Assembly (NCBI GenBank): GCA_050250895.1
Contig: JBFWNU010000002.1
Coordinates: 471,659-535,658 of the forward strand
Length of the DNA stretch: 64,000 nt
Source: Vulcanimicrobiota bacterium
Lineage (GTDB): Bacteria; Vulcanimicrobiota; Xenobia; Xenobiales; JADMJV01
Direction of reading: 5' to 3'
Position numbers and translations under genes: made by a program. Below are positions 49,232 to 60,842 of this stretch, piece after piece. Position 1 is the first letter of the stretch; the number at the start of each line of letters is the position of its first letter. The notes under the pieces are model-generated. The model saw nothing but the letters and a program-made list of their open reading frames with translations, was not told the DNA's origin and searched no databases.

Positions 49232-51685
49232 ATGGTTTCCAGGGGATTGCCCCGTCGGGCCTTTTTGCAGTTGCTCGGCGGCACGGGAGCTGGTTTGTTT
49301 CTGGGGGGATGTGACGGCCAATCGGTCGAGGATTTCTTTGCTGGTGGGGGAGGAGGGCAGAACGGGGGGGCGCCGGCCGCCGGGCTTACCACCGGTCGCG
49401 TCGACCTGAGCCAGATCGGTGGCACGGGCCTGCGCGTGCTGTCGGCCTTTCTGGCTCCGGCCAACGTCGACGGCACGGGCCAGTTCGCGACCTCTGTGCT
49501 AAACACCAGGGCCCAGGCCCTGCTTGTTCTCGATGATGCCGGCAAAGTGCGGGCCCTGGGTTTGTCGCTGCCCGGTGCGAACCTCTTGTTCGACGCGGCC
49601 AGCACCGCTCTCACCTGGGTCTTTCTTTCACCTGGTCTGGTGGTGACCGAGCCCAACGCGGCAGCGACCCTGGTGCAACGAATTCGGGCTTTGCCCGAGT
49701 TCCAGCCGGTCGTCGACTATCTGGCCGCCAGACTTCAACAGCTGACGCTATCCGAGCTGGTCGCTGACCCCGGCTTGAACTCGTTGATGCTGGCCCTGGT
49801 CAGAGCCTTGCTGGCCGCTCCAGTTCAGCGAACTCAGGCCGAAGAGGACGCCTTCAACCGGGACGGTCGGGTGGCGGTGGCTCGTAAAGAGCCCAACCCG
49901 GGCAGTCCTAACACTCCTTTTGAGCTCAGCAACGAAGGCTGGCGCTTCGTCAACGTCATTCGGCAGGAGATTTTGCCTAACGGCCAGGAGAACATCACGC
50001 CGTTGACGCCGATTCGCCCTGAACTGGTCGGAGCCGTTCAGGTCGAGCGTAATCTATTGCCCGGAGTGAGCGGTTTCAGTCTGGGCAATCTGTTTACCGC
50101 CCAGACGCTATCACCGGGCACAGCCATCGATTTCGCCAATATCGACACGCCCGCTCTCGGACGCCTGGTATACTGGATCTACGGCCCGGGTTCTGGGCTG
50201 CGATCGTCCGATCCGCTCCCGCCTACCATCGCCCTTGGCGACTTTGGTGGTGCTTCGCTGGGCATGACCGGCCTGTTCTACATGCTTTTTCCCATCGTCG
50301 AAAGCTTCATGGCGGGCTTGGGCAGGCTCAAAGAGGCGCCCACTACGACCGGGGACCTCCAGGCCGGCATCAAGCTCGCCGAGAAGCTTTGGGCCGGAGC
50401 TACTCAGTCTGTCAATCTGACCGGCCTGCAACTGGCCCTGAGCACCGGTCAGGAGGCCAACATCCTGGCCGCCTGGATCGACCTGGTCTCGGCCCTGGCT
50501 CAGCTGGTGGTAGGCGGTCTGGCCGTGGCTCTCGAGGGGACGGTGGCCGGAACCGTCGCCATCGTGCTGGAGTTGCTGTTGGCGGCCATAGGCACCTTCT
50601 TCGCCGGTTGGAACGCTTTGGTGGCCACAGCTCACTTTCTAGGTCTTCCGCAGGTGGCGGCGGTGCAGGTTCCCATCGCCCGGCGCAGCCTGAACCTGGT
50701 GGGTACCAGTCCCTTCACCACGCAAGACCTGGATGCGAACGGACGGGTGCTGTTCTTTACGCCTTCGCCGGCCCGGGTCCAGGTGAAGGACCTGGAAGCC
50801 AATCCCGTCGATCTGACTCCGATCCTCAACGCGACCTTCAACGGCGTCATGGATAATCACGGCCTGGTGGTTGCCAATCGGGGGCCGAACGGGGTCTCCT
50901 TGCTCCAGGTGGATGTCGCGCAGGTCTTTCCGGTGATTCCCCCGGCTCAGGCCGTTGCGGGCAGTCCCGCGGCTCGCCTCATTTCTGATAGCGGCTGGAT
51001 CTATGGGGACTTTAGAATCAGCGATCCACCCAACGTCGACCGGGTCGAAATCTGGGGCAGCGACGGGGGAGTCGACATGGATGGAAACATCCCCAGCCAG
51101 TCGCTGGGTATCATCGCGCAGATCGAGGCCGAGAGTGGCCGCATGGTCTCGCGAGGCACCGGGATTCAGCTCACCGGGGTCAATTCTCTGGGAGAATTTG
51201 TCGGTTTCGCCAGTCTGGTGGGCCCGCCGGCGGGAGTGGTCAACTTCCGCTACAGTCCCAACGTGGGATTGACCAGCTTCGAGGTGACCGATGTGCCGGC
51301 CGGTCTGGTGGGCCCACGCTATCTGGGCATCAATTTGGCCGGGCATATCCTGGTCCAGGAGGATGCCCCGGGCGGGGTCCAGCGCGGCCGCATTATCGGT
51401 GGGCCGACGCTAAGCACGGTGGGCAACCACACCGTCATGGGACTCAACGATGACGATGTGGTGGTCGGATTGATGGAATTTCCCGACGTGCGACCGGTGG
51501 TCTGGCGCAACGGCGGGTTTGAAGAGATCAATCAATTGATCCCACCAGGGCAACGTGACCCTCAATCACCCTTTTACTTCGAGCCAGGACTCTCGGCTGG
51601 AAGGGCCCTATTCAAAGGCAATTTCGTCGTGTTACGTCGGACTCTCCTGGACCGAGACGAGATCTTCGTGCTAGGCCTGGGTTAG
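49232..51685 (+). CDS. Large Tat-exported lipoprotein of unknown function
   Basis: PRRAFLQLLGG..FLGGC; internal hydrophobic helices; C-terminal beta-repeats (GVNSLG, GINLAG, GLNDDD). Confidence 0.8.
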   Translation: MVSRGLPRRAFLQLLGGTGAGLFLGGCDGQSVEDFFAGGGGGQNGGAPAAGLTTGRVDLSQIGGTGLRVLSAFLAPANVDGTGQFATSVLNTRAQALLVLDDAGKVRALGLSLPGANLLFDAASTALTWVFLSPGLVVTEPNAAATLVQRIRALPEFQPVVDYLAARLQQLTLSELVADPGLNSLMLALVRALLAAPVQRTQAEEDAFNRDGRVAVARKEPNPGSPNTPFELSNEGWRFVNVIRQEILPNGQENITPLTPIRPELVGAVQVERNLLPGVSGFSLGNLFTAQTLSPGTAIDFANIDTPALGRLVYWIYGPGSGLRSSDPLPPTIALGDFGGASLGMTGLFYMLFPIVESFMAGLGRLKEAPTTTGDLQAGIKLAEKLWAGATQSVNLTGLQLALSTGQEANILAAWIDLVSALAQLVVGGLAVALEGTVAGTVAIVLELLLAAIGTFFAGWNALVATAHFLGLPQVAAVQVPIARRSLNLVGTSPFTTQDLDANGRVLFFTPSPARVQVKDLEANPVDLTPILNATFNGVMDNHGLVVANRGPNGVSLLQVDVAQVFPVIPPAQAVAGSPAARLISDSGWIYGDFRISDPPNVDRVEIWGSDGGVDMDGNIPSQSLGIIAQIEAESGRMVSRGTGIQLTGVNSLGEFVGFASLVGPPAGVVNFRYSPNVGLTSFEVTDVPAGLVGPRYLGINLAGHILVQEDAPGGVQRGRIIGGPTLSTVGNHTVMGLNDDDVVVGLMEFPDVRPVVWRNGGFEEINQLIPPGQRDPQSPFYFEPGLSAGRALFKGNFVVLRRTLLDRDEIFVLGLG

Positions 51686-51827
51686 TCGTTTGGCTAGCCC
51701 AGGCTTGGCCGGGCGGCCACCCGTCTTTGGCCTGACCTCGCCAGGGGAGTGCACCCGCGACGGGAACTCTTCCAGCCGATTTGGGGCCTCCAGCCAGGAG
51801 GTATCGACTTACAAGGGGGATTGGGTA

Positions 51828-54104
51828 ATGGGCGTTAGCAAGGCGGCCAGCCTGGTGCTGGCCACGCTGATGGTGCTATTTCTCGGGGGGTGCAACGAAG
51901 ACGGTAGCGTCAACGAGTCTCGTATTTCCGAGGGCCAGGTGGTTCTAACACCGCTGGAGAGCGCGGCCATCTTGCAGCGGTCATTGCTGTTAACGCGCGC
52001 CGTTAACGGCCTTTTCATGCTGAACTCGTTCGTGGTCAACGACCCGCAGCCGCAGCCGCAGCGCAGCTCGGTGGACCCCTTCGATGAAGACATTCGCATT
52101 CCGGGAACCAACTTCATCACCGAGCAACATCTGTTGACCACCACCGAGGCCCAGGATAAAGACCTGCCCGAAGGAACCATCCGCATCCGCGTGAGAGAGG
52201 TCGGCAAAGCCTATGACAGCAATCACGTGCTCTATTGCCTGCCGGCTGTGTTCGCCAACAATCAATTCACTCAAGAGATTCGTCTGGGCAGCAACACCGA
52301 GAGCTTCTTCGGTTGCTTTGGAAGGGCCACGGAAGTATTCGACGCCGGGTTCAACCTGTTGAGCTTGGGATTCACCCAACTCATCCCCTTTAGTGAGCGA
52401 ACCACCGTTTTTGGCGGGCAGGGTCTATTCACTCTTCAGAGCAATGGTCGGTTTATCGGGGATCTCACGGTTCCTCACAAGCTGTATCCGGGGGCCCTTC
52501 AGTCCATTAGCGGAGAAGCTCTGCAAACCAACCGCTCGATGGGTTTCGCCAACGCTGACACCCAGGGCCTGTTCAACTTCCTGGGCGTGCAGGGCCAGGT
52601 GACTCTCAACAACCTCGGCGGCGGTGGACAGATCGCCACCCCCACCAACGGCACCCAGGCCGGTACCGTGACTCCAGGCGGCATTCTCCAGGTCGCCCTC
52701 CCCGACAATTCGCAACTCGCCGACGGCAACATCGATGACGGGGGCGAGTTGTCCGACAACCTGCCGGTGCCGGCCAACGGCTCCCTCACGTTGACTTTCG
52801 ACAACAATGCCATCGAGGTCGGCCAGACGGCGTTCGTCTTCGTCAATGCTTTTGACGGAAACGGCAACCTGGTCCCCTTCACCACCCGGTCCGGTCGTTT
52901 GACGAGCGACGGAACCCATGTGCGCGTGGTGACTTCTCACTCGGTCGTGGGACAGAGCCTCGGGGTCGACACCTTGACCTATCGCGATGATGACACGGGC
53001 AAGGAGGCCACCGGTATGGTCACCGTCTTCCAGGGGACCACGCCACCCACGCCTCCCGCCCCGGGTCCGGTGGGCGGTTACCTCTATGTCTCCGACAGCG
53101 GCAACGATCAGATCGATGTCTTCCCGTTCAATATCACGACCGGAGCCCTCGGCAACTCGAGCCAGGTGGCCAGCACCGGCGCCAATCCCTCGGACCTGCT
53201 GGTGCTGCGCAACGAGCAGTTGTTGCTGGTAGCCGTCGACGGTGGCCTGGATGTGTACTCCATCAGTCAGCAGAACGGCCAGCTCAGCTTGTTGCGCTCC
53301 AACACGCTGGGCTTCACTCCCGCCGATCTCTCTGAAAGTGGTAAGATGGTCACCGCCGGAGCCAATATTCGGCTCTTTGCCACCAAGTCCGGGTCGCCCC
53401 TGTCCGTGCTCGAGCTCAACCCGACCAACGGACAGGTTCAGCAGTTGGCCGAGATTCCGTTCGCCGGTTTCCCTTTCGACTTGACCAACCTGGCGGTTGG
53501 CAGCGACGAGTTTCTCTTTGTCACCAACAACAGTAACGGGGTGGTGGTTTTCCAGGTCCCTGACGCCTTCGGTGGAGCGGTTCCCAACCAGCAGTTCGAC
53601 TTCCCGGTGGCCAGCCAACTGTCCGAGGTTGCCGTCAGCTTCGCCAGCGGACCGGTGCTCGAGATTCTCGACCTCAACGGCTCGGCCTTGCTGAGCGCCA
53701 GCATCAATACAGCCAACGGGTTGTCGAGCATCCTCGACATCGCCAATTCGACCCGCATCGACACGGTGGGGCGTCCGAGGGGCCTGGCCGTAGACGACCT
53801 CTCAGACGTTGCCTACTTTGGCAGCGAGTTCGTGAGCAATAGCCTCGATGGCTTTGGCCTGACCGGGCCGCCCACCGCTCCTGTGCACCTGACGAATGCT
53901 CCCTACGCCGCCTCGGGCAACGCCATCGCGGTGAAGATCACCGGCAGTTCAGCTCAGCTGATCTATGCCTTGACCTCGCCTCAGAACACGTTGGAACTCT
54001 TCTTACAGAATGCAAACCTCTCTTTGATGTCGAATTCTCAAGTGACCCTGCCAGGTGCTAATGCCCAGGCCCAGGACCTGGAAGCGGTCATTCTCAACGA
54101 CTAG
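51828..54104 (+). CDS. Large lipoprotein with Ig-like and lactonase-type beta-propeller regions
   Basis: LFLGGC lipobox; YLYVSDSGNDQIDVF..TGAL and VYSISQQNGQL propeller blades. Confidence 0.78.
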   Translation: MGVSKAASLVLATLMVLFLGGCNEDGSVNESRISEGQVVLTPLESAAILQRSLLLTRAVNGLFMLNSFVVNDPQPQPQRSSVDPFDEDIRIPGTNFITEQHLLTTTEAQDKDLPEGTIRIRVREVGKAYDSNHVLYCLPAVFANNQFTQEIRLGSNTESFFGCFGRATEVFDAGFNLLSLGFTQLIPFSERTTVFGGQGLFTLQSNGRFIGDLTVPHKLYPGALQSISGEALQTNRSMGFANADTQGLFNFLGVQGQVTLNNLGGGGQIATPTNGTQAGTVTPGGILQVALPDNSQLADGNIDDGGELSDNLPVPANGSLTLTFDNNAIEVGQTAFVFVNAFDGNGNLVPFTTRSGRLTSDGTHVRVVTSHSVVGQSLGVDTLTYRDDDTGKEATGMVTVFQGTTPPTPPAPGPVGGYLYVSDSGNDQIDVFPFNITTGALGNSSQVASTGANPSDLLVLRNEQLLLVAVDGGLDVYSISQQNGQLSLLRSNTLGFTPADLSESGKMVTAGANIRLFATKSGSPLSVLELNPTNGQVQQLAEIPFAGFPFDLTNLAVGSDEFLFVTNNSNGVVVFQVPDAFGGAVPNQQFDFPVASQLSEVAVSFASGPVLEILDLNGSALLSASINTANGLSSILDIANSTRIDTVGRPRGLAVDDLSDVAYFGSEFVSNSLDGFGLTGPPTAPVHLTNAPYAASGNAIAVKITGSSAQLIYALTSPQNTLELFLQNANLSLMSNSQVTLPGANAQAQDLEAVILND

Positions 54105-54111
54105 GAAGAGC

Positions 54112-54738
54112 ATGCGTATCACGTTGGTTGACGGCCTGGTCCTGGCACGCCAGGGCCTGCGCCTGCTACTGGAGTCCGAGCCGGGCTTAGAAGTGGTCTA
54201 TGAGTGCAGTCCGAGTGAAGTTTGCTCGGAGGAGTTCGCCCGTTCCGGTTCAGCTCTGGTCTTGCTGGACTTGTTGGACGGTTCTGAACTAGGTTGTCTC
54301 GACTCGTTTTTCGGGGTGCCGCTGCTGGCGGTGGCTTCCCATAACGATGTCGAGTTGGCCGTGCGGGCGTTTCGAGCCGGCGCCAGCGGCTTTGTGGTCA
54401 AATCGGCTCAGCCGGATGAATTGCTGTTGGCCATGCAGATCGTGGCCCAGGGAGGCTGTTACATTCATCCCCGGGTGGCTCAGGCGGTCCTGGCCCAGCT
54501 CCGCGGCGGGGCGTGCAGAGCGAGCGGCTGGGACGGCCTGGGAGGGCGAGAGTTTGCGCTGGTAAGTTTAGTAGCCGAAGGGCTGGCCAATATCCAGATC
54601 GCTCAGCGACTCAATGTCTCGCTGGGCACAGTCAAGAACGACTTGCGCGGCCTCTTTGTCAAACTGGGCGTACGGGATCGCACTCAACTCGCCATCGAAG
54701 CCACCCGCCGCGGTCTCAACGGCGTCTCGCACGCCTGA
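54112..54738 (+). CDS. NarL/LuxR-family response regulator
   Basis: LVD..LARQGLRLLL, VLLD, GASGFVVK, HTH 'GLANIQIAQRLNVSLGTVK'. Confidence 0.9.
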   Translation: MRITLVDGLVLARQGLRLLLESEPGLEVVYECSPSEVCSEEFARSGSALVLLDLLDGSELGCLDSFFGVPLLAVASHNDVELAVRAFRAGASGFVVKSAQPDELLLAMQIVAQGGCYIHPRVAQAVLAQLRGGACRASGWDGLGGREFALVSLVAEGLANIQIAQRLNVSLGTVKNDLRGLFVKLGVRDRTQLAIEATRRGLNGVSHA

Positions 54739-54909: not shown

Positions 54910-55281
54910 TTAGTGATTCCCATCCCCCAAGCAACTTGCTCGAGCTTCGGCTGCTCGGGCTTTGTCGGGCAGGGCCGCCTCTCGATAGAGCCCGGCGGCC
55001 TCGCGCAGGCTCCAAGCAGCGGAGTCAAGCTGGTCGAGTCTGATCTGAAACTCTGCGGCTTGCTCGTAGTAGGCTCCATCACCCGAGACCACTCCGGCCT
55101 GGGAGCTGGTAATCGCGGCGTAGCTGAGCTTGCCAAGCGCCTCGAGGGCGAGGGTTCGTATCTTCAACCCTTCAAGATTGGACAGGTCCCACCTGAGCAC
55201 AGACATGGCCAACGAGTCGGCCAGAGCGAAATTCCCGCTATCGAGGGCGATGCGCGCCTGCCGCAAAACGCCACGACTCAT
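54910..55281 (-). CDS. Hypothetical TPR-like helical protein
   Basis: 123-aa Ala-rich helical ORF coupled to the upstream gene; partially conserved in the 48.9-kb duplicate. Confidence 0.6.
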   Translation of the reverse strand: MSRGVLRQARIALDSGNFALADSLAMSVLRWDLSNLEGLKIRTLALEALGKLSYAAITSSQAGVVSGDGAYYEQAAEFQIRLDQLDSAAWSLREAAGLYREAALPDKARAAEARASCLGDGNH

Positions 55282-55282
55282 C

Positions 55283-55567
55283 TTAAAACAAGACGAGCAG
55301 GGCGGCGGAGCCCACCACCAGCGTCAGCCAGTAAGGCCAACCGGTCGAGTCGAGTTCTTTAAGCAGCCAGAAGACCAGCAAGGACAGTCCGGTGGCCCCC
55401 ACCAGAATGACCAGCACCCGGCTCCACTCGCCGGTGAAGGCCACATCGAAGATCAGGCCGTTGGTGAATAAACAAGCCCCGTAGAGGGCGGCGCAAACCT
55501 TGGGCTGGCCGGTCTGGATCAACACCTTGATCAACATTGGGATGAGGAAGAGCTTCAGCAGCAGCAC
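55283..55567 (-). CDS. Small membrane protein
   Basis: Three to four transmembrane segments; TAAGGT-N6-GTG; duplicate fragment at 49.0-49.1 kb. Confidence 0.75.
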   Translation of the reverse strand: MLLLKLFLIPMLIKVLIQTGQPKVCAALYGACLFTNGLIFDVAFTGEWSRVLVILVGATGLSLLVFWLLKELDSTGWPYWLTLVVGSAALLVLF

Positions 55568-55791
55568 CCTGCTACCTTAGCACACCCCGCCAGGCCCGTC
55601 GAGCAGTCTCTAGGCGCGGTCGGCGGCGACTTCCAGGGTCACACCTGGGCGGGACCGACTTCCCCGCGGAAGTCACCCGGTTTCTCCCCGAAGACCGGAT
55701 GTTAACAAAGTGTGCCTTCGAAGGCGCAGGGCAGTCGGGTAGTTTTAGAAAGTCCCGCACTAGGGTAGCTGTTAACGAAGAGAGGTCGTAA

Positions 55792-56919
55792 GTGCTCGTC
55801 TATCCCAACACCCAACGCTCTCCTCTGGCGGCGCCAAGACGGCGCACTTCGCAGGAGGCTATCGGGATTATCGGGGGGGGAAATTCGGCCCGCGCTCTGG
55901 CCGGTTATCTCTCTCGCCGTGGTCACGAGGTGCGCCTGTTGGTGCGCAGCCCCGAGAAGGTTGCGGGGCTCGATTACCATCGCGCCGTGCGCGTCATTGG
56001 TCATCTTGAGGGATATTATCCGGTCAAGCAGGTCACCACCGAACCGGACCGGTTCTTTGGCGACTGCCGGACGCTGTTTGTCGCCACCACCACCGACGCC
56101 TATCCCGAGCTGTGCCGTCGCTACGGTCCTTACCTCGAGGCCGGTCACCAGGTCATCCTGTTCTCGTCGAAGTTCGGCGGCAGCGCACTGTTCGAACATG
56201 GATTGGCCCAGCAGCGCCGCACCGGCGTACGGGTGATCGAGACCGATGCGCTTTTTGCCTGCCGGGCTCAGGGCGACGACGCCATCTGGATTCGCGGCAT
56301 CAAACGCTGGACCTACTATTCTTGCCCGAGGCAGTCGCAGACCCGCCAGGCGGCCGCTCTGATGGCCAACTTCTTCCCCGGCCTCGAGCCGGCCGAGAAT
56401 CTGGTGCAGCGCGGCCTGACCGACTTTGGAGCCCTGGCCCACGCCCTGACCGTGCTGGTCAATATGAACAGCATCGATCGCGGCAAGCCGTTTCTGTTCT
56501 ATTACGAGGGGTTCACGGAAAACACGGTGGTCTTGCTCGAGTCGATGGAGCGCGAGTTCCAGCGCGTGGCTCAGGCTTACGGCACCAGCCTCATTCCCGC
56601 CGCCGAACTGCTCAACCGTTATTACGGCGGTGGCACCGGCAGCCTGCTCGAGGCTATTCGACAGGTGCCCAACTACCGCCACAGCGTGGCTCCCGACACC
56701 CTGCGCCATCGTTACCTGACCGAGGATGTGCCCTGTACGCTGGTGCCGGTCCAGCAACTGGCCCGCCTGGCTGGCGTAGCCACCCCGATGATCGATTCGG
56801 TCATTAACCTGTCCTCCGTCCTGAGCGGCCGGGACTTTGCTAGCACCGGTCGTAGCCTGTCTCAGTTTGGCTGGTCGGGGCTCAAGCCCCGCCAGATCGT
56901 CGACTGGATGGCCCGATGA
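55792..56919 (+). CDS. NAD(P)-dependent opine (octopine/nopaline) dehydrogenase family protein
   Basis: IIGGGNSA Rossmann motif, IETDALFACR, FYYEG, HRYLTEDVP..LVP, AGVATPMIDSVI. Confidence 0.88.
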   Translation: MLVYPNTQRSPLAAPRRRTSQEAIGIIGGGNSARALAGYLSRRGHEVRLLVRSPEKVAGLDYHRAVRVIGHLEGYYPVKQVTTEPDRFFGDCRTLFVATTTDAYPELCRRYGPYLEAGHQVILFSSKFGGSALFEHGLAQQRRTGVRVIETDALFACRAQGDDAIWIRGIKRWTYYSCPRQSQTRQAAALMANFFPGLEPAENLVQRGLTDFGALAHALTVLVNMNSIDRGKPFLFYYEGFTENTVVLLESMEREFQRVAQAYGTSLIPAAELLNRYYGGGTGSLLEAIRQVPNYRHSVAPDTLRHRYLTEDVPCTLVPVQQLARLAGVATPMIDSVINLSSVLSGRDFASTGRSLSQFGWSGLKPRQIVDWMAR

Positions 56920-57761
56920 GCAAGTGGACCTCCAGCTGGGTGCTGGTCGCCCTGTTGGCGGCCGCTATCGAACCGATTCTGGCCAAGCTGGGCTATCGGG
57001 GCGCGGCCACTCCGCTGCAGCTGTTGGTCATGAAGAACGTGGTGGCAGCCTGTATGATCCTGCCACTCACTCGCGCCTGGAACTGGGTGGGTTGGTCCGG
57101 CGTGCGCAAGATGGCCTCGGTCAGCCTGCTGTTGTTGTTTACCAACTTCTGCTCGCTGGTGGCCGTCAAGTTCCTGCCGGCCGTCACCGTGATCACTCTG
57201 GTTACCACCACTCCGGCTTTCGTGGCCTTGACCAACCAGCGCAAAGGCCGCGACGTCTTGGGGCGCAAGTATTGGTTCGGCTTCGGGCTGTGCTTTTTGG
57301 GCGTGGCTCTGTCGATCGACGCCCTGCGTAACGGATCGATGGTGTTTCACCCGGTGGGGCTGCTGGCCGTACTGGGCTCGATCGCCAGCTCCACCATTTA
57401 CCGCACGCGTCTTGAGGATGTGACGGCCGAGTTCAAACCGGCCCTGGTCTCGACCTATATCTTCTTGATCAATGCGGTGGTCAGTCTGGTGTTCGTGGCT
57501 CCTTTCATCGACCCCATCCCGATGGCGATGGTTCCGGTCGGACTGTGGATCGGACTGGCGGCCGCCGTGGCCAACGTGGCCTTCCTGTCGGCCGTGCACC
57601 TGGTGGGGGCCACCAACATGTCGATCTTCAACCTGCTGCAGCGGCCTATGGTGCTCATCGCCGCCAGCCTGGTGCTGCACGAGCATCTGGGCTGGATGCA
57701 GTGGGTAGGTATCGCCATGATCTTAGCCGGAGTTCGCATCGCGAAAGTCGTTCGTAAGTGA
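56916..57761 (+). CDS. EamA/DMT family transporter
   Basis: About ten transmembrane segments in two repeats; ..LQRP..L..E.L...QWVG; ATGA coupling. Confidence 0.88.
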   Translation: MSKWTSSWVLVALLAAAIEPILAKLGYRGAATPLQLLVMKNVVAACMILPLTRAWNWVGWSGVRKMASVSLLLLFTNFCSLVAVKFLPAVTVITLVTTTPAFVALTNQRKGRDVLGRKYWFGFGLCFLGVALSIDALRNGSMVFHPVGLLAVLGSIASSTIYRTRLEDVTAEFKPALVSTYIFLINAVVSLVFVAPFIDPIPMAMVPVGLWIGLAAAVANVAFLSAVHLVGATNMSIFNLLQRPMVLIAASLVLHEHLGWMQWVGIAMILAGVRIAKVVRK

Positions 57762-59185
57762 GTTTCGACCAGCTGATGGGCTGGGTGGAACAAGAACACG
57801 GTTTTCCCGCCCAGCTCGAAGACTTCCATAACCGCCGTTGCGCCTGGCTCTTCGAGCAAGGTCTAGGCCGCGACTTGACCATGCCGGTGACGGTGGTGGC
57901 CGGGTCCTGCGGCAAGGCTTCGACGGCCCGCTTTCTGGCCTTCATCGTCAGGGCCTTGCTGGATGCCACCGGCGAGACGCGACCGCTGGGACTGGGCACC
58001 AAGCCGCCTCTGCAAGAGACCCTGCAAGGCAATCGCGAGCGCTACCAGTTGTTCGAGGCCGGCCAGCCGGTCCCACGCTGGATCGCTCCCCAGGAGTTTA
58101 CTCGACTGGCTGCTCAGCTCCAGGCCCTGGTCGAAGGGCTGCCCGCCGAGCTGGGGCCTTTGGCCGCTTATGATCTGCGCTACTGGTTGTTGGGGCGATT
58201 TTTCGTCGAACAGCAGGTGGCCTTTGGCATCGTCGAGGCCAACATCGGGTTGCGGCTCGATCCCGCTTCGGTCTTTCCCGAGCCCGCCCTGGCTCTGTTG
58301 ACTCCCATTGGCAACGACCACGGAGCCCAACTCAAACCAGACGGAGCGCCCGATTGGCTGGCCCTGCTGGGAGACCGGGCCGGGCCGACCTGGCACAAGG
58401 CCGGCGGTTTGCCGCCCGGGGCGCCGGTAGTGGTCGGCCGTCAGACGATCGCCGTCGAGCAGGCCATCGCCCGCCTTCACCCCCGCAACCTCACCCTGTG
58501 GGAAAGAGACTACGAGGCGACCGAGGTGGTAGCGGGCACGCGGGGCACCACCATGCGACTGCGACTGGGTGAAGAGAGCTTCGAGGTGAGGTTGTCGGTG
58601 GTGGGTCGCTTTCAGGCCGACAATGCCGCCCAGGCGGCTGCCGGCGCCTGGGTGCTGTGGAAAGAGGGCAAGTTGCCGGGCACTTTCGCCCAATTGCGCC
58701 AGGCCGTGGTGACCGGGTTGGAGCGAGCCGATACTCCCGGCCGCCTGCAACTGTATGCCCAGGAGCCGACCACCTACGTTGCCCTGGCCACCGGGTTCAT
58801 CAAGGTCGACACTTTGATGAAAAGCCTCGAAGAATTGCTCGACAGTCATCATCCCGAATCGCGGCTGGTGGTGTGCCTGACCTTTCTGGATCGCATCTTC
58901 GAAGTGCGGCGCTCGTTCGAGCGGATTCTCGAGAGCCCGCGCCTGGAAGCCGCGGTGGTGACCTCGTTCTTTGACGATGACGAGAACCGCGATCTCGCTC
59001 CCGAGGTGTTGGCCGGCTGGGCCGCAGGCAGCGAGGTGCGCGTTTGCCCCGACCCTGGCCAGGCGGTCGAAACGGCGCGCCGTCTGGCCCACCCCGAACG
59101 CGACCTGGTGCTGTTGTTGGGCAACGGACTGTGCCATAGCCTCGACCTTTCGCCCGAGCCGAAACTTCGCGGTAACAAGCTGTAA
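57758..59185 (+). CDS. Divergent FolC/Mur-ligase-superfamily ATP-dependent ligase
   Basis: VAGSCGKAST, VEANIGLRLDP, TPIGNDH, HKAG, GRFQADNA, PGRLQ; lacks DxAHN. Confidence 0.8.
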   Translation: MSFDQLMGWVEQEHGFPAQLEDFHNRRCAWLFEQGLGRDLTMPVTVVAGSCGKASTARFLAFIVRALLDATGETRPLGLGTKPPLQETLQGNRERYQLFEAGQPVPRWIAPQEFTRLAAQLQALVEGLPAELGPLAAYDLRYWLLGRFFVEQQVAFGIVEANIGLRLDPASVFPEPALALLTPIGNDHGAQLKPDGAPDWLALLGDRAGPTWHKAGGLPPGAPVVVGRQTIAVEQAIARLHPRNLTLWERDYEATEVVAGTRGTTMRLRLGEESFEVRLSVVGRFQADNAAQAAAGAWVLWKEGKLPGTFAQLRQAVVTGLERADTPGRLQLYAQEPTTYVALATGFIKVDTLMKSLEELLDSHHPESRLVVCLTFLDRIFEVRRSFERILESPRLEAAVVTSFFDDDENRDLAPEVLAGWAAGSEVRVCPDPGQAVETARRLAHPERDLVLLLGNGLCHSLDLSPEPKLRGNKL

Positions 59186-59210
59186 TACCACCAGCTTATA
59201 GTCTGGGGCT

Positions 59211-60122
59211 GTGCAGATCACCAGCCTGACCCGCAGCTACTCCAGGCCCCAACCACCGATGGCTCGAGCCGAGGTGGCCCCGGCGCGCCTGGATGCTAGC
59301 CTGCTTCGGCCCAAGAACGACCCGGTGGCCGCAGCCGTCAACCGCATGCTCGATGACCCGCTCGAGCCCGCTCTGCGTACCCTGCTGGTCGACGGCCTGC
59401 GTCCTTATGGAGCCGATATCCTCAATCGTCTGGCCGACCACGGGCTCAAGCTCAAGACACCCGCGGAAGGCTATGCCCACTACTCGACCACCGAGCGCAC
59501 CATTACCTATCCTTTGCCCGATCTGCGTCGCGATCAGGAGATTCCGTTTCGTGACTACATGATTTTGCACGAGATGGCCCATGCCATGGACTTTCTGCTC
59601 GAGCCCGCGGGGCCACAGCTCTCCAAACGCGAGGACCTGGGCATCTCGGCTCACCGCGATCGGCTGCGTGGTCTGTACCGGCCGGCTCTGGCCGCCTTCC
59701 AGGCGACCGAAGAACGTCTACGCCGGCAGGGAAAGTGGGGACCGCGCCCGGGAATGCCGCTGGCCCGGGTCTATGGTGAGGACTTCATCACCGTGGTCGA
59801 AAAGGTCACCGGTCGCCAGCTCAGTGAGCGCCCCGGCCGTGGGCATCTGACCATTCTCGATGCCGACACCAATCCCACCGAGTATTTCGCCGACGCGGTC
59901 TACTGCTATCTTCATCACGAGCGGGTCGCCACCCACCGCTATCGTCTGCCCGACGGGCAGATGATTGCCCACCAGTATCCGCCGGATCGCAACCTGCTGG
60001 CCCAACGCGACCCCCGCATGTACGAGGCCCTGGACCGCTTCTTTTCCAGGACCACTCCACACGCCCAGGACCTGGCTATTGGCCAGTCCTCATCGGTCGC
60101 TGGAGCGGATCTTGGCCAGTAG
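59211..60122 (+). CDS. Zincin metallopeptidase (anthrax lethal factor / M34-like)
   Basis: ILHEMAHAMD (HExxH), NPTEYFADAV, L..RDPRMY. Confidence 0.72.
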   Translation: MQITSLTRSYSRPQPPMARAEVAPARLDASLLRPKNDPVAAAVNRMLDDPLEPALRTLLVDGLRPYGADILNRLADHGLKLKTPAEGYAHYSTTERTITYPLPDLRRDQEIPFRDYMILHEMAHAMDFLLEPAGPQLSKREDLGISAHRDRLRGLYRPALAAFQATEERLRRQGKWGPRPGMPLARVYGEDFITVVEKVTGRQLSERPGRGHLTILDADTNPTEYFADAVYCYLHHERVATHRYRLPDGQMIAHQYPPDRNLLAQRDPRMYEALDRFFSRTTPHAQDLAIGQSSSVAGADLGQ

Positions 60123-60842
60123 CCGCAGGATTTCTAGATAGAGCCAGATCAGGGTGACTACCAGGCCGAAGGCCGCGTACCACTCCATGTACTTGGGTGC
60201 GCCATGTTCGACGCCTTGCTCGATAAAGTCGAAATCGAGCACCAGGTTCAGAGCTGCGATGACGACCACGAACAGGCTAAAACCGATCCCTGCCGCCCCC
60301 GCGTCGTGAATGAAAGGCACGTCGGTGCCAAAGAATCGCAGGCCGATACTGACCAGATAGACCAGCGCGATGCCGCCGGTCGCAGCCACCACTCCTAACT
60401 TGAAGTTCTCGGTGGGTTTGATCAATCCGGAACGATAAGCCAGCAGCAGGCAAAAGAGGGTGCCGAAGGTCAGGCCCACGGCCTGCAGCACGATACCGGG
60501 ATAGGCTCGCTCGAAGATCGACGAGAGGGTGCCCAGCACCAGGCCCTCGGCCCCGGCATAAAAGGGCGAGGTATAGGGGGACCACTCTTTCTTGAAGATG
60601 GTGACCAGAGCCAGCACGAAGCCGGTGAGTGAACCCCCGATGCAGACGGGGAAGAGCAGGTCGGGATTGCTGTCGATCAACCCCCACACCGAGCCGGCGG
60701 CGGCTACCACCAGGCACAAAAGGAAGAAGGTGCGATGGACTGTCCCGTCCAGGGACATGCGCTGGGGGACCTCCTGGATGGTGGTTTGCCACTGGGCAAA
60801 GGTGCGTTCACTGAGAGTGGGATTTCCGGTTCTTAACGCCAT
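60090..60842 (-). CDS. Bax inhibitor-1/YccA family membrane protein
   Basis: YAGAEG..LG..S, YPGIVLQAV, NLVLDFD.IE, EWY.AFGL.VTLIWLYLEILRLL. Confidence 0.92.
   Translation of the reverse strand: MALRTGNPTLSERTFAQWQTTIQEVPQRMSLDGTVHRTFFLLCLVVAAAGSVWGLIDSNPDLLFPVCIGGSLTGFVLALVTIFKKEWSPYTSPFYAGAEGLVLGTLSSIFERAYPGIVLQAVGLTFGTLFCLLLAYRSGLIKPTENFKLGVVAATGGIALVYLVSIGLRFFGTDVPFIHDAGAAGIGFSLFVVVIAALNLVLDFDFIEQGVEHGAPKYMEWYAAFGLVVTLIWLYLEILRLLAKIRSSDR

Follow-up and report, generated by a model that had tools for sequence, protein, structure and literature searches.

What does a bacterium build with an opine dehydrogenase, a membrane exporter and a ligase that resembles folylpolyglutamate synthase (FolC)? 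The question is raised by three adjacent genes in a 64,000-nucleotide stretch of Vulcanimicrobiota DNA (contig JBFWNU010000002.1; the whole stretch is hereafter called the window), which encode an opine dehydrogenase (ODH), an EamA/DMT-family transporter and a FolC-fold ligase (Table 1). A sequence-only reading of the window had proposed the synthesis and export of an amide-ligated opine, which would serve as a metallophore, osmolyte or signal. From sequence comparisons and predicted structures we infer, with a probability of roughly 55%, that the triad is a self-contained module that makes and exports a predicted amide-extended opine, which is probably an iron metallophore. Taken singly, the two parts of this reading differ in strength. 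That the triad is dedicated to making a small molecule for secretion appears highly probable, and that its product is a metal chelator, most likely for iron acquisition and thus an opine-type metallophore made without nicotianamine synthase, is a proposition for which the odds are about even.

In the proposed pathway, ODH would condense a common amino acid with a 2-oxo acid at the expense of NAD(P)H, yielding an N-(carboxyalkyl)amino acid opine, a small aminopolycarboxylate. Because the ligase retains the catalytic residues of Mur ligases and FolC, it would be expected to activate a carboxylate with ATP as an acyl phosphate and then to form an amide bond with an amine, probably not glutamate. 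The carboxylate is most likely on the opine, or alternatively on a precursor. The EamA protein would export the product, and the ligase may represent an add-on tailoring step on an ancestral ODH-EamA core.

The three genes are translationally coupled, as had been claimed from the sequence alone: 4-nt overlaps are present in the window sequence both between ODH and EamA (cgATGAgc, 56916-56919) and between EamA and the ligase (aaGTGAgt, 57758-57761). The GC content at third codon positions (GC3) of the three open reading frames (ORFs) is 0.78-0.84, which is of the coding type and like that of other window genes. GC content over the triad (0.62-0.65) matches the flanks, and composition thus gives no sign of a recent horizontal transfer of the triad. 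No RNA sequencing run was listed as containing this stretch, and six DNA runs contain small shares of its sequence words.

ODH matches the Pfam family Octopine_DH with 131 bits (cut-off 30), and Rossmann-type families match its N-terminus at residues 24-123, where the motif GIIGGGNSA is found. Its nearest solved structure is the N-(1-D-carboxyethyl)-L-norvaline dehydrogenase (CENDH) of Arthrobacter sp. 1C (1BG6; E = 5.8e-38 over residues 23-366), with which it shares full-length homology and a two-domain layout. When ODH is aligned to 1BG6 with phmmer, the columns of CENDH His202, Arg292 and Asp297 are occupied by H, R and D; of these CENDH residues we take His202 and Asp297 to be the catalytic pair and Arg292 to be the substrate-carboxylate residue. 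Among solved structures, the octopine dehydrogenase of Pecten and the staphylopine dehydrogenase are weak matches, and both staphylopine-dehydrogenase models were missed (PF10100, 22.3 bits with a cut-off of 25; NF033600, 15.1 with a cut-off of 675). These results bear out the earlier assignment to the classical octopine type and identify ODH, by homology, as a predicted NAD(P)H-dependent opine dehydrogenase of the octopine/CENDH type. It is the sole Octopine_DH gene of the source genome, and, unlike the Arthrobacter enzyme, it is a member of an orthologous group of its own, whose genes go together with an EamA gene and often with the ligase as well.

The ligase exceeds the Pfam cut-off for Mur_ligase_C (30.6 bits; cut-off 28.4) and falls under that for Mur_ligase_M (18.1; cut-off 24); despite this subthreshold score, the central domain is present in the predicted model and aligns to FolC and MurE/F structures. 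The AlphaFold (AF2) model has a pLDDT of 92.7, and its top 16 Foldseek matches are all FolC/FPGS (TM 0.70-0.85, 17-22% identity). Similarly, in a profile search against solved structures FolC/FPGS come first (113 and 111 bits) and MurE/MurF follow, and the ESM Atlas returned FolC look-alikes only. We rejected a peptidoglycan Mur ligase as the identity of this protein, MurC-F ranking well under FolC by both sequence and fold.

The ligase carries the P-loop AGSCGKAST (residues 47-55), GTKPPL (80-85), EANIGLRLD (160-168), TPIGNDH (182-188) and ALATG (342-346). The P-loop, RLD and DH motifs are thus as the sequence-only reading gave them, except that its E..G.RLD has to be corrected, three residues standing between E and G in EANIGLRLD. 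In comparison with the folylpolyglutamate synthase (FPGS) of L. casei, the ligase keeps the P-loop, the Mg-binding glutamate, the DH histidine, the HKAG lysine (to which H213-K214 aligns), the adenine-site asparagine and the PGR arginine. The conserved lysine of FolC is carbamoylated. In a profile alignment TKPP stands where the L. casei enzyme has TSPF, with four residues inserted ahead of ERYQ, and VALATGF stands in place of IDGAHNP, which agrees with the claim that TSPHL reads TKPPL and DxAHN reads ALATG. An alignment of 33 family rows has the invariant motifs AGSCGKAST, GTKPPLxETxDGNRERYQ, EANIGLRxDP, TPIGxDH, AGPxWHKAG, GxFQxENA and PGRxE and a lone K349; the family-invariant residues include G49, G52, K53, S55, K82-P83-P84-L85, E94-R95-Y96-Q97, E160, N162, D168, H188, H213-K214, N289, G328-R329 and K349. 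As a whole, the P-loop, E160, D187-H188, H213-K214, N289 and G328-R329 are invariant or almost so, and the replacement motifs at the folate-loop and glutamate sites are likewise invariant or conserved inside the subfamily. Since the ATP, Mg and catalytic residues are kept and TSPF and IDGAHNP are replaced, the ATP-dependent acyl-phosphate machinery is, as judged from these alignments, intact and both substrate sites are rebuilt. In the rebuilt N-terminal site, K82, R95 and R141 would suit a polycarboxylate acceptor, and in the C-terminal domain K349, R379 and D412 would suit an amino-acid-like nucleophile.

None of the FolC models is reached by the ligase: it scores 61.9 bits with NCBIfam folC TIGR01499 (cut-off 162.65) and 14.9-33.8 bits with the other FolC equivalog models (cut-offs 360-700). 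Among 5.8 billion proteins searched, 68 relatives were found, mostly at 35-49% identity, and FolC is the name wherever the source names them. When 1.84 billion representatives were searched exhaustively with a profile, members of the ligase subfamily scored at least 262 bits (about 23 clusters including fragments), tandem double Mur ligases of 796-956 aa occupied 170-224 bits, and a single-domain FolC continuum ran from about 171 bits down. On these scores the ligase belongs to a small, sharply bounded subfamily. Proteins P0201-P0205 and P0210 carry two FolC-like Mur-ligase units in tandem and score between the ligase subfamily and ordinary FolC.

To follow the triad in other genomes, we scanned one genome per prokaryote species and obtained 21 family loci (L012-L032), apart from four more distant FolC-like loci from Chloroflexota that were set aside. 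Most of the genomes compared in this study are metagenome bins, in which an absence means "not found". The labels of the 21 loci name Vulcanimicrobiota/Candidatus Xenobia and Myxococcota, apart from a few that are unrelated; besides myxobacteria, the carriers of the three genes are uncultured bacteria of soil and sludge. ODH, EamA and ligase are colinear in 14 of them, and in two more a MatE gene takes the place of EamA, so that the co-occurrence search proposed with the sequence-only reading returned a conserved unit; the remainder are two loci in which the ligase has no adjoining ODH and three in which the contig ends too soon upstream to judge (Table 1). Two further loci, L050 and L051, are likewise colinear for all three genes. 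In a survey of the phylum, the ligase is found in 17 of 401 genomes and an ODH match at E <=1e-30 in 32, of which 29 reach at least 42% identity. ODH is also present in 16 of the 17 ligase genomes, the exception (G030) having its ligase at a contig start, and in 11 of the 17 ODH and ligase share a contig at a distance of about 3.5 kb or less. Neither gene was found in any of the 297 genomes of the phylum's largest family. No further neighbour is conserved across lineages around the module. The response regulator upstream and a phosphatase-family gene downstream in the window were considered as conserved neighbours and rejected, for they are not orthologous to their look-alikes in L047 and L023 (28% identity; E = 0.061). 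The submitter labels of L013, L020, L022 and L028 (Burkholderiales, Synergistia or Selenomonadaceae) look unreliable, and L020 and L022 group with Vulcanimicrobiota rows in the ODH tree.

The transporter matches Pfam EamA (PF00892) in two stretches with 63.6 bits (cut-off 28.2), and in most related loci an EamA orthologue of 50-60% identity adjoins ODH. L012 and L025 have a MatE efflux protein between ODH and ligase instead, and this swap argues for export. Efflux in known opine zincophore clusters is by MFS, EamA or MatE proteins (PMC7438024).

The case for a metal comes from the relatives. The loci were dereplicated to 26 lineages and surveyed for the first gene on each side or any gene inside the module; the Pfam scan covered 118 of 215 candidate ORFs, excluding the near-duplicates L043, L048 and L016 as well as most ORFs shorter than about 100 aa, and seven more neighbour ORFs (from L042, L045, L039 and L040) were scanned separately. 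A metal-related gene is directly beside or inside the module in 6 of the 26 loci, and a seventh locus has such a gene in second position (Table 1). L022 and L024 are close relatives that share their downstream genes, and their iron transporters upstream differ. Fur genes, which interrupt the module in two loci, are rare: the 9.5-Mb source genome has two, neither of them near the window. Moreover, the 7-1-7 inverted repeat TGA[TG]A-N5-T[AC]TCA has seven independent sites among 55 loci and the window, all in the three low-GC loci L020, L045 and L049 and all in intergenic or 5' regions that flank ODH, EamA, Fur or ligase genes; L020 holds the full triad. In none of 300 shuffles is the observed count reached in L020, L045 or L049. 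The neighbours and promoter motifs of the relatives thus point to control by a metal, probably iron. Among the roles named in the sequence-only reading, it is the metallophore that the iron genes and the Fur-box-like repeats of relatives favour. One repeat in L020 also precedes a downstream group of genes for three methyltransferases, a MarR regulator and CMD and CCG proteins, which may share the regulon.

Several points weigh against the reading as an exported opine-amide metallophore. In the window and its flanks we found no metal-uptake gene, Fur gene or 7-1-7 repeat, and the classical symmetrised 7-1-7 box has 0 matches in the window at <=3 mismatches, so that the metal link is one carried over from relatives. 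Even there, 20 of the 26 dereplicated loci have unrelated neighbours and no metal gene adjoining the module. FeoB and FTR1 import free iron, not chelates, and no dedicated importer is conserved with the module across the related loci. Neighbour genes were called by a crude ORF and GC3 filter, which is least reliable in loci of 70% GC or more, and the 7-1-7 pattern was written after two sites had been seen; its statistics are thus partly circular, and the repeats count as supporting evidence, not proof. As to the chemistry, a conserved unit and an intact ligase with altered substrate sites agree with the earlier claim of an amide-ligated opine, but it is gene adjacency, and nothing further, that would tie the ligase to the opine. 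The ligase is also the only FolC-like gene in the source genome, which would fit a folate role.

The three-gene unit is, furthermore, conserved without being obligate. In L023 and L028 the ligase stands apart from ODH, and 13 of the 29 phylum genomes that carry an ODH orthologue lack the ligase. Among the 11 ligase-less ODH loci that we examined, an EamA orthologue adjoins ODH in 10; the exception is the ODH locus L047, from a genome that carries its ligase and EamA elsewhere. An ODH tree of 28 rows, from which duplicate loci and rows aligned over fewer than 300 residues had been dropped, has ligase-linked and ligase-less rows interspersed, with at least three changes forced by well-supported branches and six under the most parsimonious account. 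These results suggest that the ligase was gained or lost repeatedly on one ODH-EamA background, which fits an optional tailoring step. Because 13 genomes have the pair and no ligase, the ligase looks like an add-on, and the ODH-EamA pair would be the older, ancestral core. The Myxococcota ODH rows cluster inside the Xenobia diversity with weak support (80/65).

The module could also make and export an opine-amide that has no metal role and acts as a signal, a compatible solute or an antimetabolite such as an N-carboxyalkyl dipeptide inhibiting zinc metalloproteases. The evidence for synthesis and export is identical in both cases, and this alternative draws in addition on the 20 loci without a metal gene, on the lack of a conserved importer and on L039 and L040, in which a zincin-type protein is coupled 5' of ODH, with an S8 protease downstream in L039. 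We nevertheless consider it unlikely, though it is the most serious competitor: in separate lineages the module is repeatedly accompanied by five different iron-related families and by a Fur-family regulator, and Fur-box-like repeats stand at module promoters in three loci. Nothing comparable supports a signal or an osmolyte, and the protease link is limited to a single genus. The zincin-type proteins of L039 and L040 are about 470 aa long, carry the motif HExxH...HESFGD and are translationally coupled upstream of ODH-EamA; the two come from one genus without the ligase, are 36% identical to each other, and one has a weak Peptidase_M36 match.

The fold of the ligase suggests another alternative, in which it is a divergent folylpolyglutamate synthase and the triad serves folate salvage, with uptake by the transporter, trapping by the ligase and ODH acting as a C=N reductase. 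FolC/FPGS are indeed the best structural matches, and a ligase that is the one FolC-like gene of a 99.6%-complete genome would fit, as would the presence of DHFR and a MetH-like protein in this genome (9.5 Mb, 99.64% complete). FolP was not found there, the sole pterin-binding domain being in the 1237-aa MetH-like ORF. The check for a canonical folC elsewhere gave none: the folC hidden Markov model (HMM) retrieved from the source genome the ligase and one MurE-like ORF only, and in tblastn with four FolC-like representatives the ligase is the only match. The sequence-only reading had held that it would fall if the ligase were the genome's only functional FolC; the ligase is literally the only FolC-like gene, but the lack of FolC is common to the whole lineage. 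FolC above the curated cut-off is found in 0 of 31 related genomes (order level, 20 of high quality). This ligase is missing as well from 22 of the 31, and 19 of those 22 carry canonical DHFR, which is present in 23 of the 31 overall; the lineage thus seems to manage folate without either enzyme. In genus g3, moreover, the ligase is found in 5 of 8 genomes and DHFR in none of the 8. The folate-loop and glutamate-site motifs have been swapped for different family-invariant residues, a MatE efflux pump can stand in for EamA, the ligase is present in only 17 of the 401 phylum genomes, and canonical DHFR makes an ODH-type reductase unnecessary. Folate salvage is therefore improbable in our view. 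Because no relative has FolC, most lack the ligase too and 19 still have DHFR, the absence of FolC is, on these genome comparisons, a lineage trait unrelated to this ligase, which is probably not a housekeeping FolC. An order with DHFR and MetH but no recognisable FolC or FolP poses a separate puzzle of folate supply and polyglutamylation, and an automatic annotation that calls the ligase FolC would wrongly "solve" it.

Two CofE-type proteins of the source genome were considered as possible stand-ins for FolC. A true CofE (L010) lies beside CofC on contig 6 (TIGR01916, 253 bits with a cut-off of 180.65), and a 426-aa ORF on contig 7 (L011), distinct from it, has a partial F420_ligase (CofE) domain at residues 210-306. 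With the folate gamma-glutamate ligase model TIGR04132, L010 scores 58.3 (cut-off 350) and L011 has no listing.

A catabolic module, in which EamA would import an environmental opine or opine-peptide for ODH to oxidise, with release of an amino acid and an oxo acid, is the least probable of all. In its favour, the nearest characterised enzyme (1BG6) is reversible and DMT transporters can operate in both directions. Against it, breakdown offers no evident role for a ligase that consumes ATP, two loci have a MatE efflux protein where EamA would be expected, the module has no conserved amidase or peptidase, and Fur-type control is a better fit to synthesis.

If the triad is taken as a module for an exported opine-amide metallophore, it can be set beside systems already known. 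It resembles the staphylopine, pseudopaline and yersinopine (Cnt) clusters in having a reductive opine-forming dehydrogenase beside an efflux protein, which in those clusters is of the EamA, MatE or MFS type (PMC7438024). Metal-related neighbours are a further likeness, here in some relatives of the module only: control and importer features of the Cnt type are not in the window, and in some of the relatives they comprise Fur (L045, L049), the TonB receptor (L026) and the 7-1-7 repeats (L020, L045, L049). The differences lie in the enzymes. Cnt clusters have the nicotianamine synthase CntL, whereas PF03059 has 0 matches in the whole 9.5-Mb source genome, which extends to the genome the earlier statement that there is no nicotianamine synthase. 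Their dehydrogenase is of the CntM type and that of the module of the octopine/CENDH type, below the PF10100 cut-off as noted above. Unlike them, the module has an ATP-dependent FolC-fold ligase, and no conserved ABC or TonB importer was found with it.

The ligase agrees with FolC in its fold, P-loop, Mg/ATP residues, HK lysine and PGR motif, and differs in lying far under the folC HMM cut-off, in the replacement of the TSPHL-type and DGAHN-type substrate motifs, and in its patchy occurrence, the gene always lying in or near an ODH/exporter context, which is not that of a housekeeping enzyme. NRPS-independent siderophore (NIS) synthetases (IucA/IucC; NRPS, nonribosomal peptide synthetase) would share with it the proposed job only, namely the ATP-dependent formation of an amide from a small polycarboxylate and an amine, followed by export. 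Their fold and family are unrelated, and no IucA_IucC domain was found in a Pfam scan of the three triad proteins. NIS synthetases proceed through an acyl adenylate, whereas the proposed chemistry of the ligase goes through an acyl phosphate.

In the open-access literature, to which our search was confined (subscription literature and supplements lay outside it), we found no paper on an opine dehydrogenase combined with a Mur/FolC-like ligase, nor on a Mur ligase with a metallophore; the literature that links opine dehydrogenase with EamA concerns the Cnt systems, FolC-like proteins in biosynthetic gene clusters led only to unrelated Limosilactobacillus work, and the papers on Xenobia or Eremiobacterota do not, by title or abstract, deal with the module. 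What appears new is a member of the Mur-ligase superfamily as the putative distinguishing enzyme of an opine-type metallophore or secreted-opine cluster. A more specific proposal, which we regard as tentative and rather less likely than the reading given at the outset, is that the unnamed FolC-fold ligase family and the octopine-type dehydrogenase together produce siderophore-like aminopolycarboxylates of a new class: opine-amides derived from primary metabolites by two enzyme-catalysed steps, with no nicotianamine synthase, NRPS or NIS synthetase. The module itself is common to uncultured Xenobia and predatory Myxococcota. If the proposal is true, the ligase would be the first enzyme of the Mur-ligase fold to take part in making a metallophore and the product the first opine metallophore independent of nicotianamine synthase. 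Small carboxylate metallophores would, on the broader reading, gain a third enzymatic route, in addition to those through NIS synthetases and through nicotianamine synthase/CntM, and a distinct subfamily of FolC-like ligases, now labelled folylpolyglutamate synthase by annotation pipelines, would receive its first function. With three genes and a seeming need for common metabolites only, the module should be simple to express and to study, and the product might find use as a biodegradable chelator.

Table 1. Positions of the triad, of its upstream region and of features at related loci (positions without a locus prefix refer to the window)
Feature	Location	Strand	Remarks
ODH gene	55792-56919	+	375 aa, GTG start; predicted octopine/CENDH-type opine dehydrogenase
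EamA/DMT-family membrane transporter gene	56916-57761	+	281 aa; taken as exporter
FolC-fold ATP-dependent amide ligase gene	57758-59185	+	475 aa, GTG start; subfamily without a name
Intergenic region 5' of ODH gene	55568-55791	.	224 nt; probable promoter/operator region
Direct repeat, first copy	55700-55710		TGTTAACAAAG
Direct repeat, second copy	55770-55780		TGTTAACGAAG
Large ORF	49232-51685	+	817 aa
Large ORF	51690-54104	+	804 aa
NarL/LuxR-type response regulator	54055-54738
ODH-EamA-ligase, same order and strand	L014-L017, L019-L022, L024, L026, L027, L029, L031, L032		14/21 loci
ODH, MatE gene, ligase	L012, L025		2/21 loci; MatE gene of 445 aa
Ligase without adjoining ODH	L023, L028		2/21 loci; EamA on opposite strand in L023
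Contig ends too soon upstream to judge	L013, L018, L030		3/21 loci
EfeU/FTR1 fused to cytochrome c	L022		beside module
FeoB	L024		beside module
PepSY_TM	L025		beside module
TonB-dependent receptor	L026		beside module
Fur-family regulator	L045, L049		between EamA and ODH
PepSY_TM and YHS protein	L029		seventh locus; PepSY_TM as second gene
7-1-7 repeats	L020:2338, 2819, 7602; L045:5354, 5900; L049:1833, 1965		three low-GC loci
Zincin-type protein gene	L039:4503-5912	+	upstream of ODH-EamA
Zincin-type protein gene	L040:4614-6035	+	upstream of ODH-EamA
ORF with partial F420_ligase domain	L011:1138-2418	-	source genome (G000), contig 7
DUF6686/DUF2023 small genes	L020:4062-4442; L016:253-753	+	see text
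ThiF-family gene	L022:11101-12012	-
ThiF-family gene	L024:11072-12310	-
ThiF-family gene	L050:8989-9882	-

The region upstream of ODH contains an 11-nt direct repeat of the form TGTTAAC[A/G]AAG, its two copies being 70 nt apart (Table 1). TGTTAAC has three sites in the whole 64-kb window, two of them in this region; the signal is weak, since 9 of 100 shuffles reach the count. GTTAAC-rich stretches are also found 5' of ODH in L050 and L047. The repeat is a possible operator, although a statistically weak one. No sigma-70-like promoter was found in 55568-55791, and in a promoter and terminator scan over 55200-60200 nothing exceeds the shuffle background. Further upstream in the window are two big adjacent ORFs, for which a short lactonase-propeller match is the only family match, and the response regulator gene follows this pair.

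Small genes and an adenylyltransferase-like gene accompany the module in some relatives. In one low-GC lineage a small DUF6686 gene is found between ODH and EamA, and a DUF2023 gene precedes ODH in L020. A ThiF-family (E1-like adenylyltransferase) gene is near the module in two lineages, and in L050 it lies directly 5' of ODH on the same strand.

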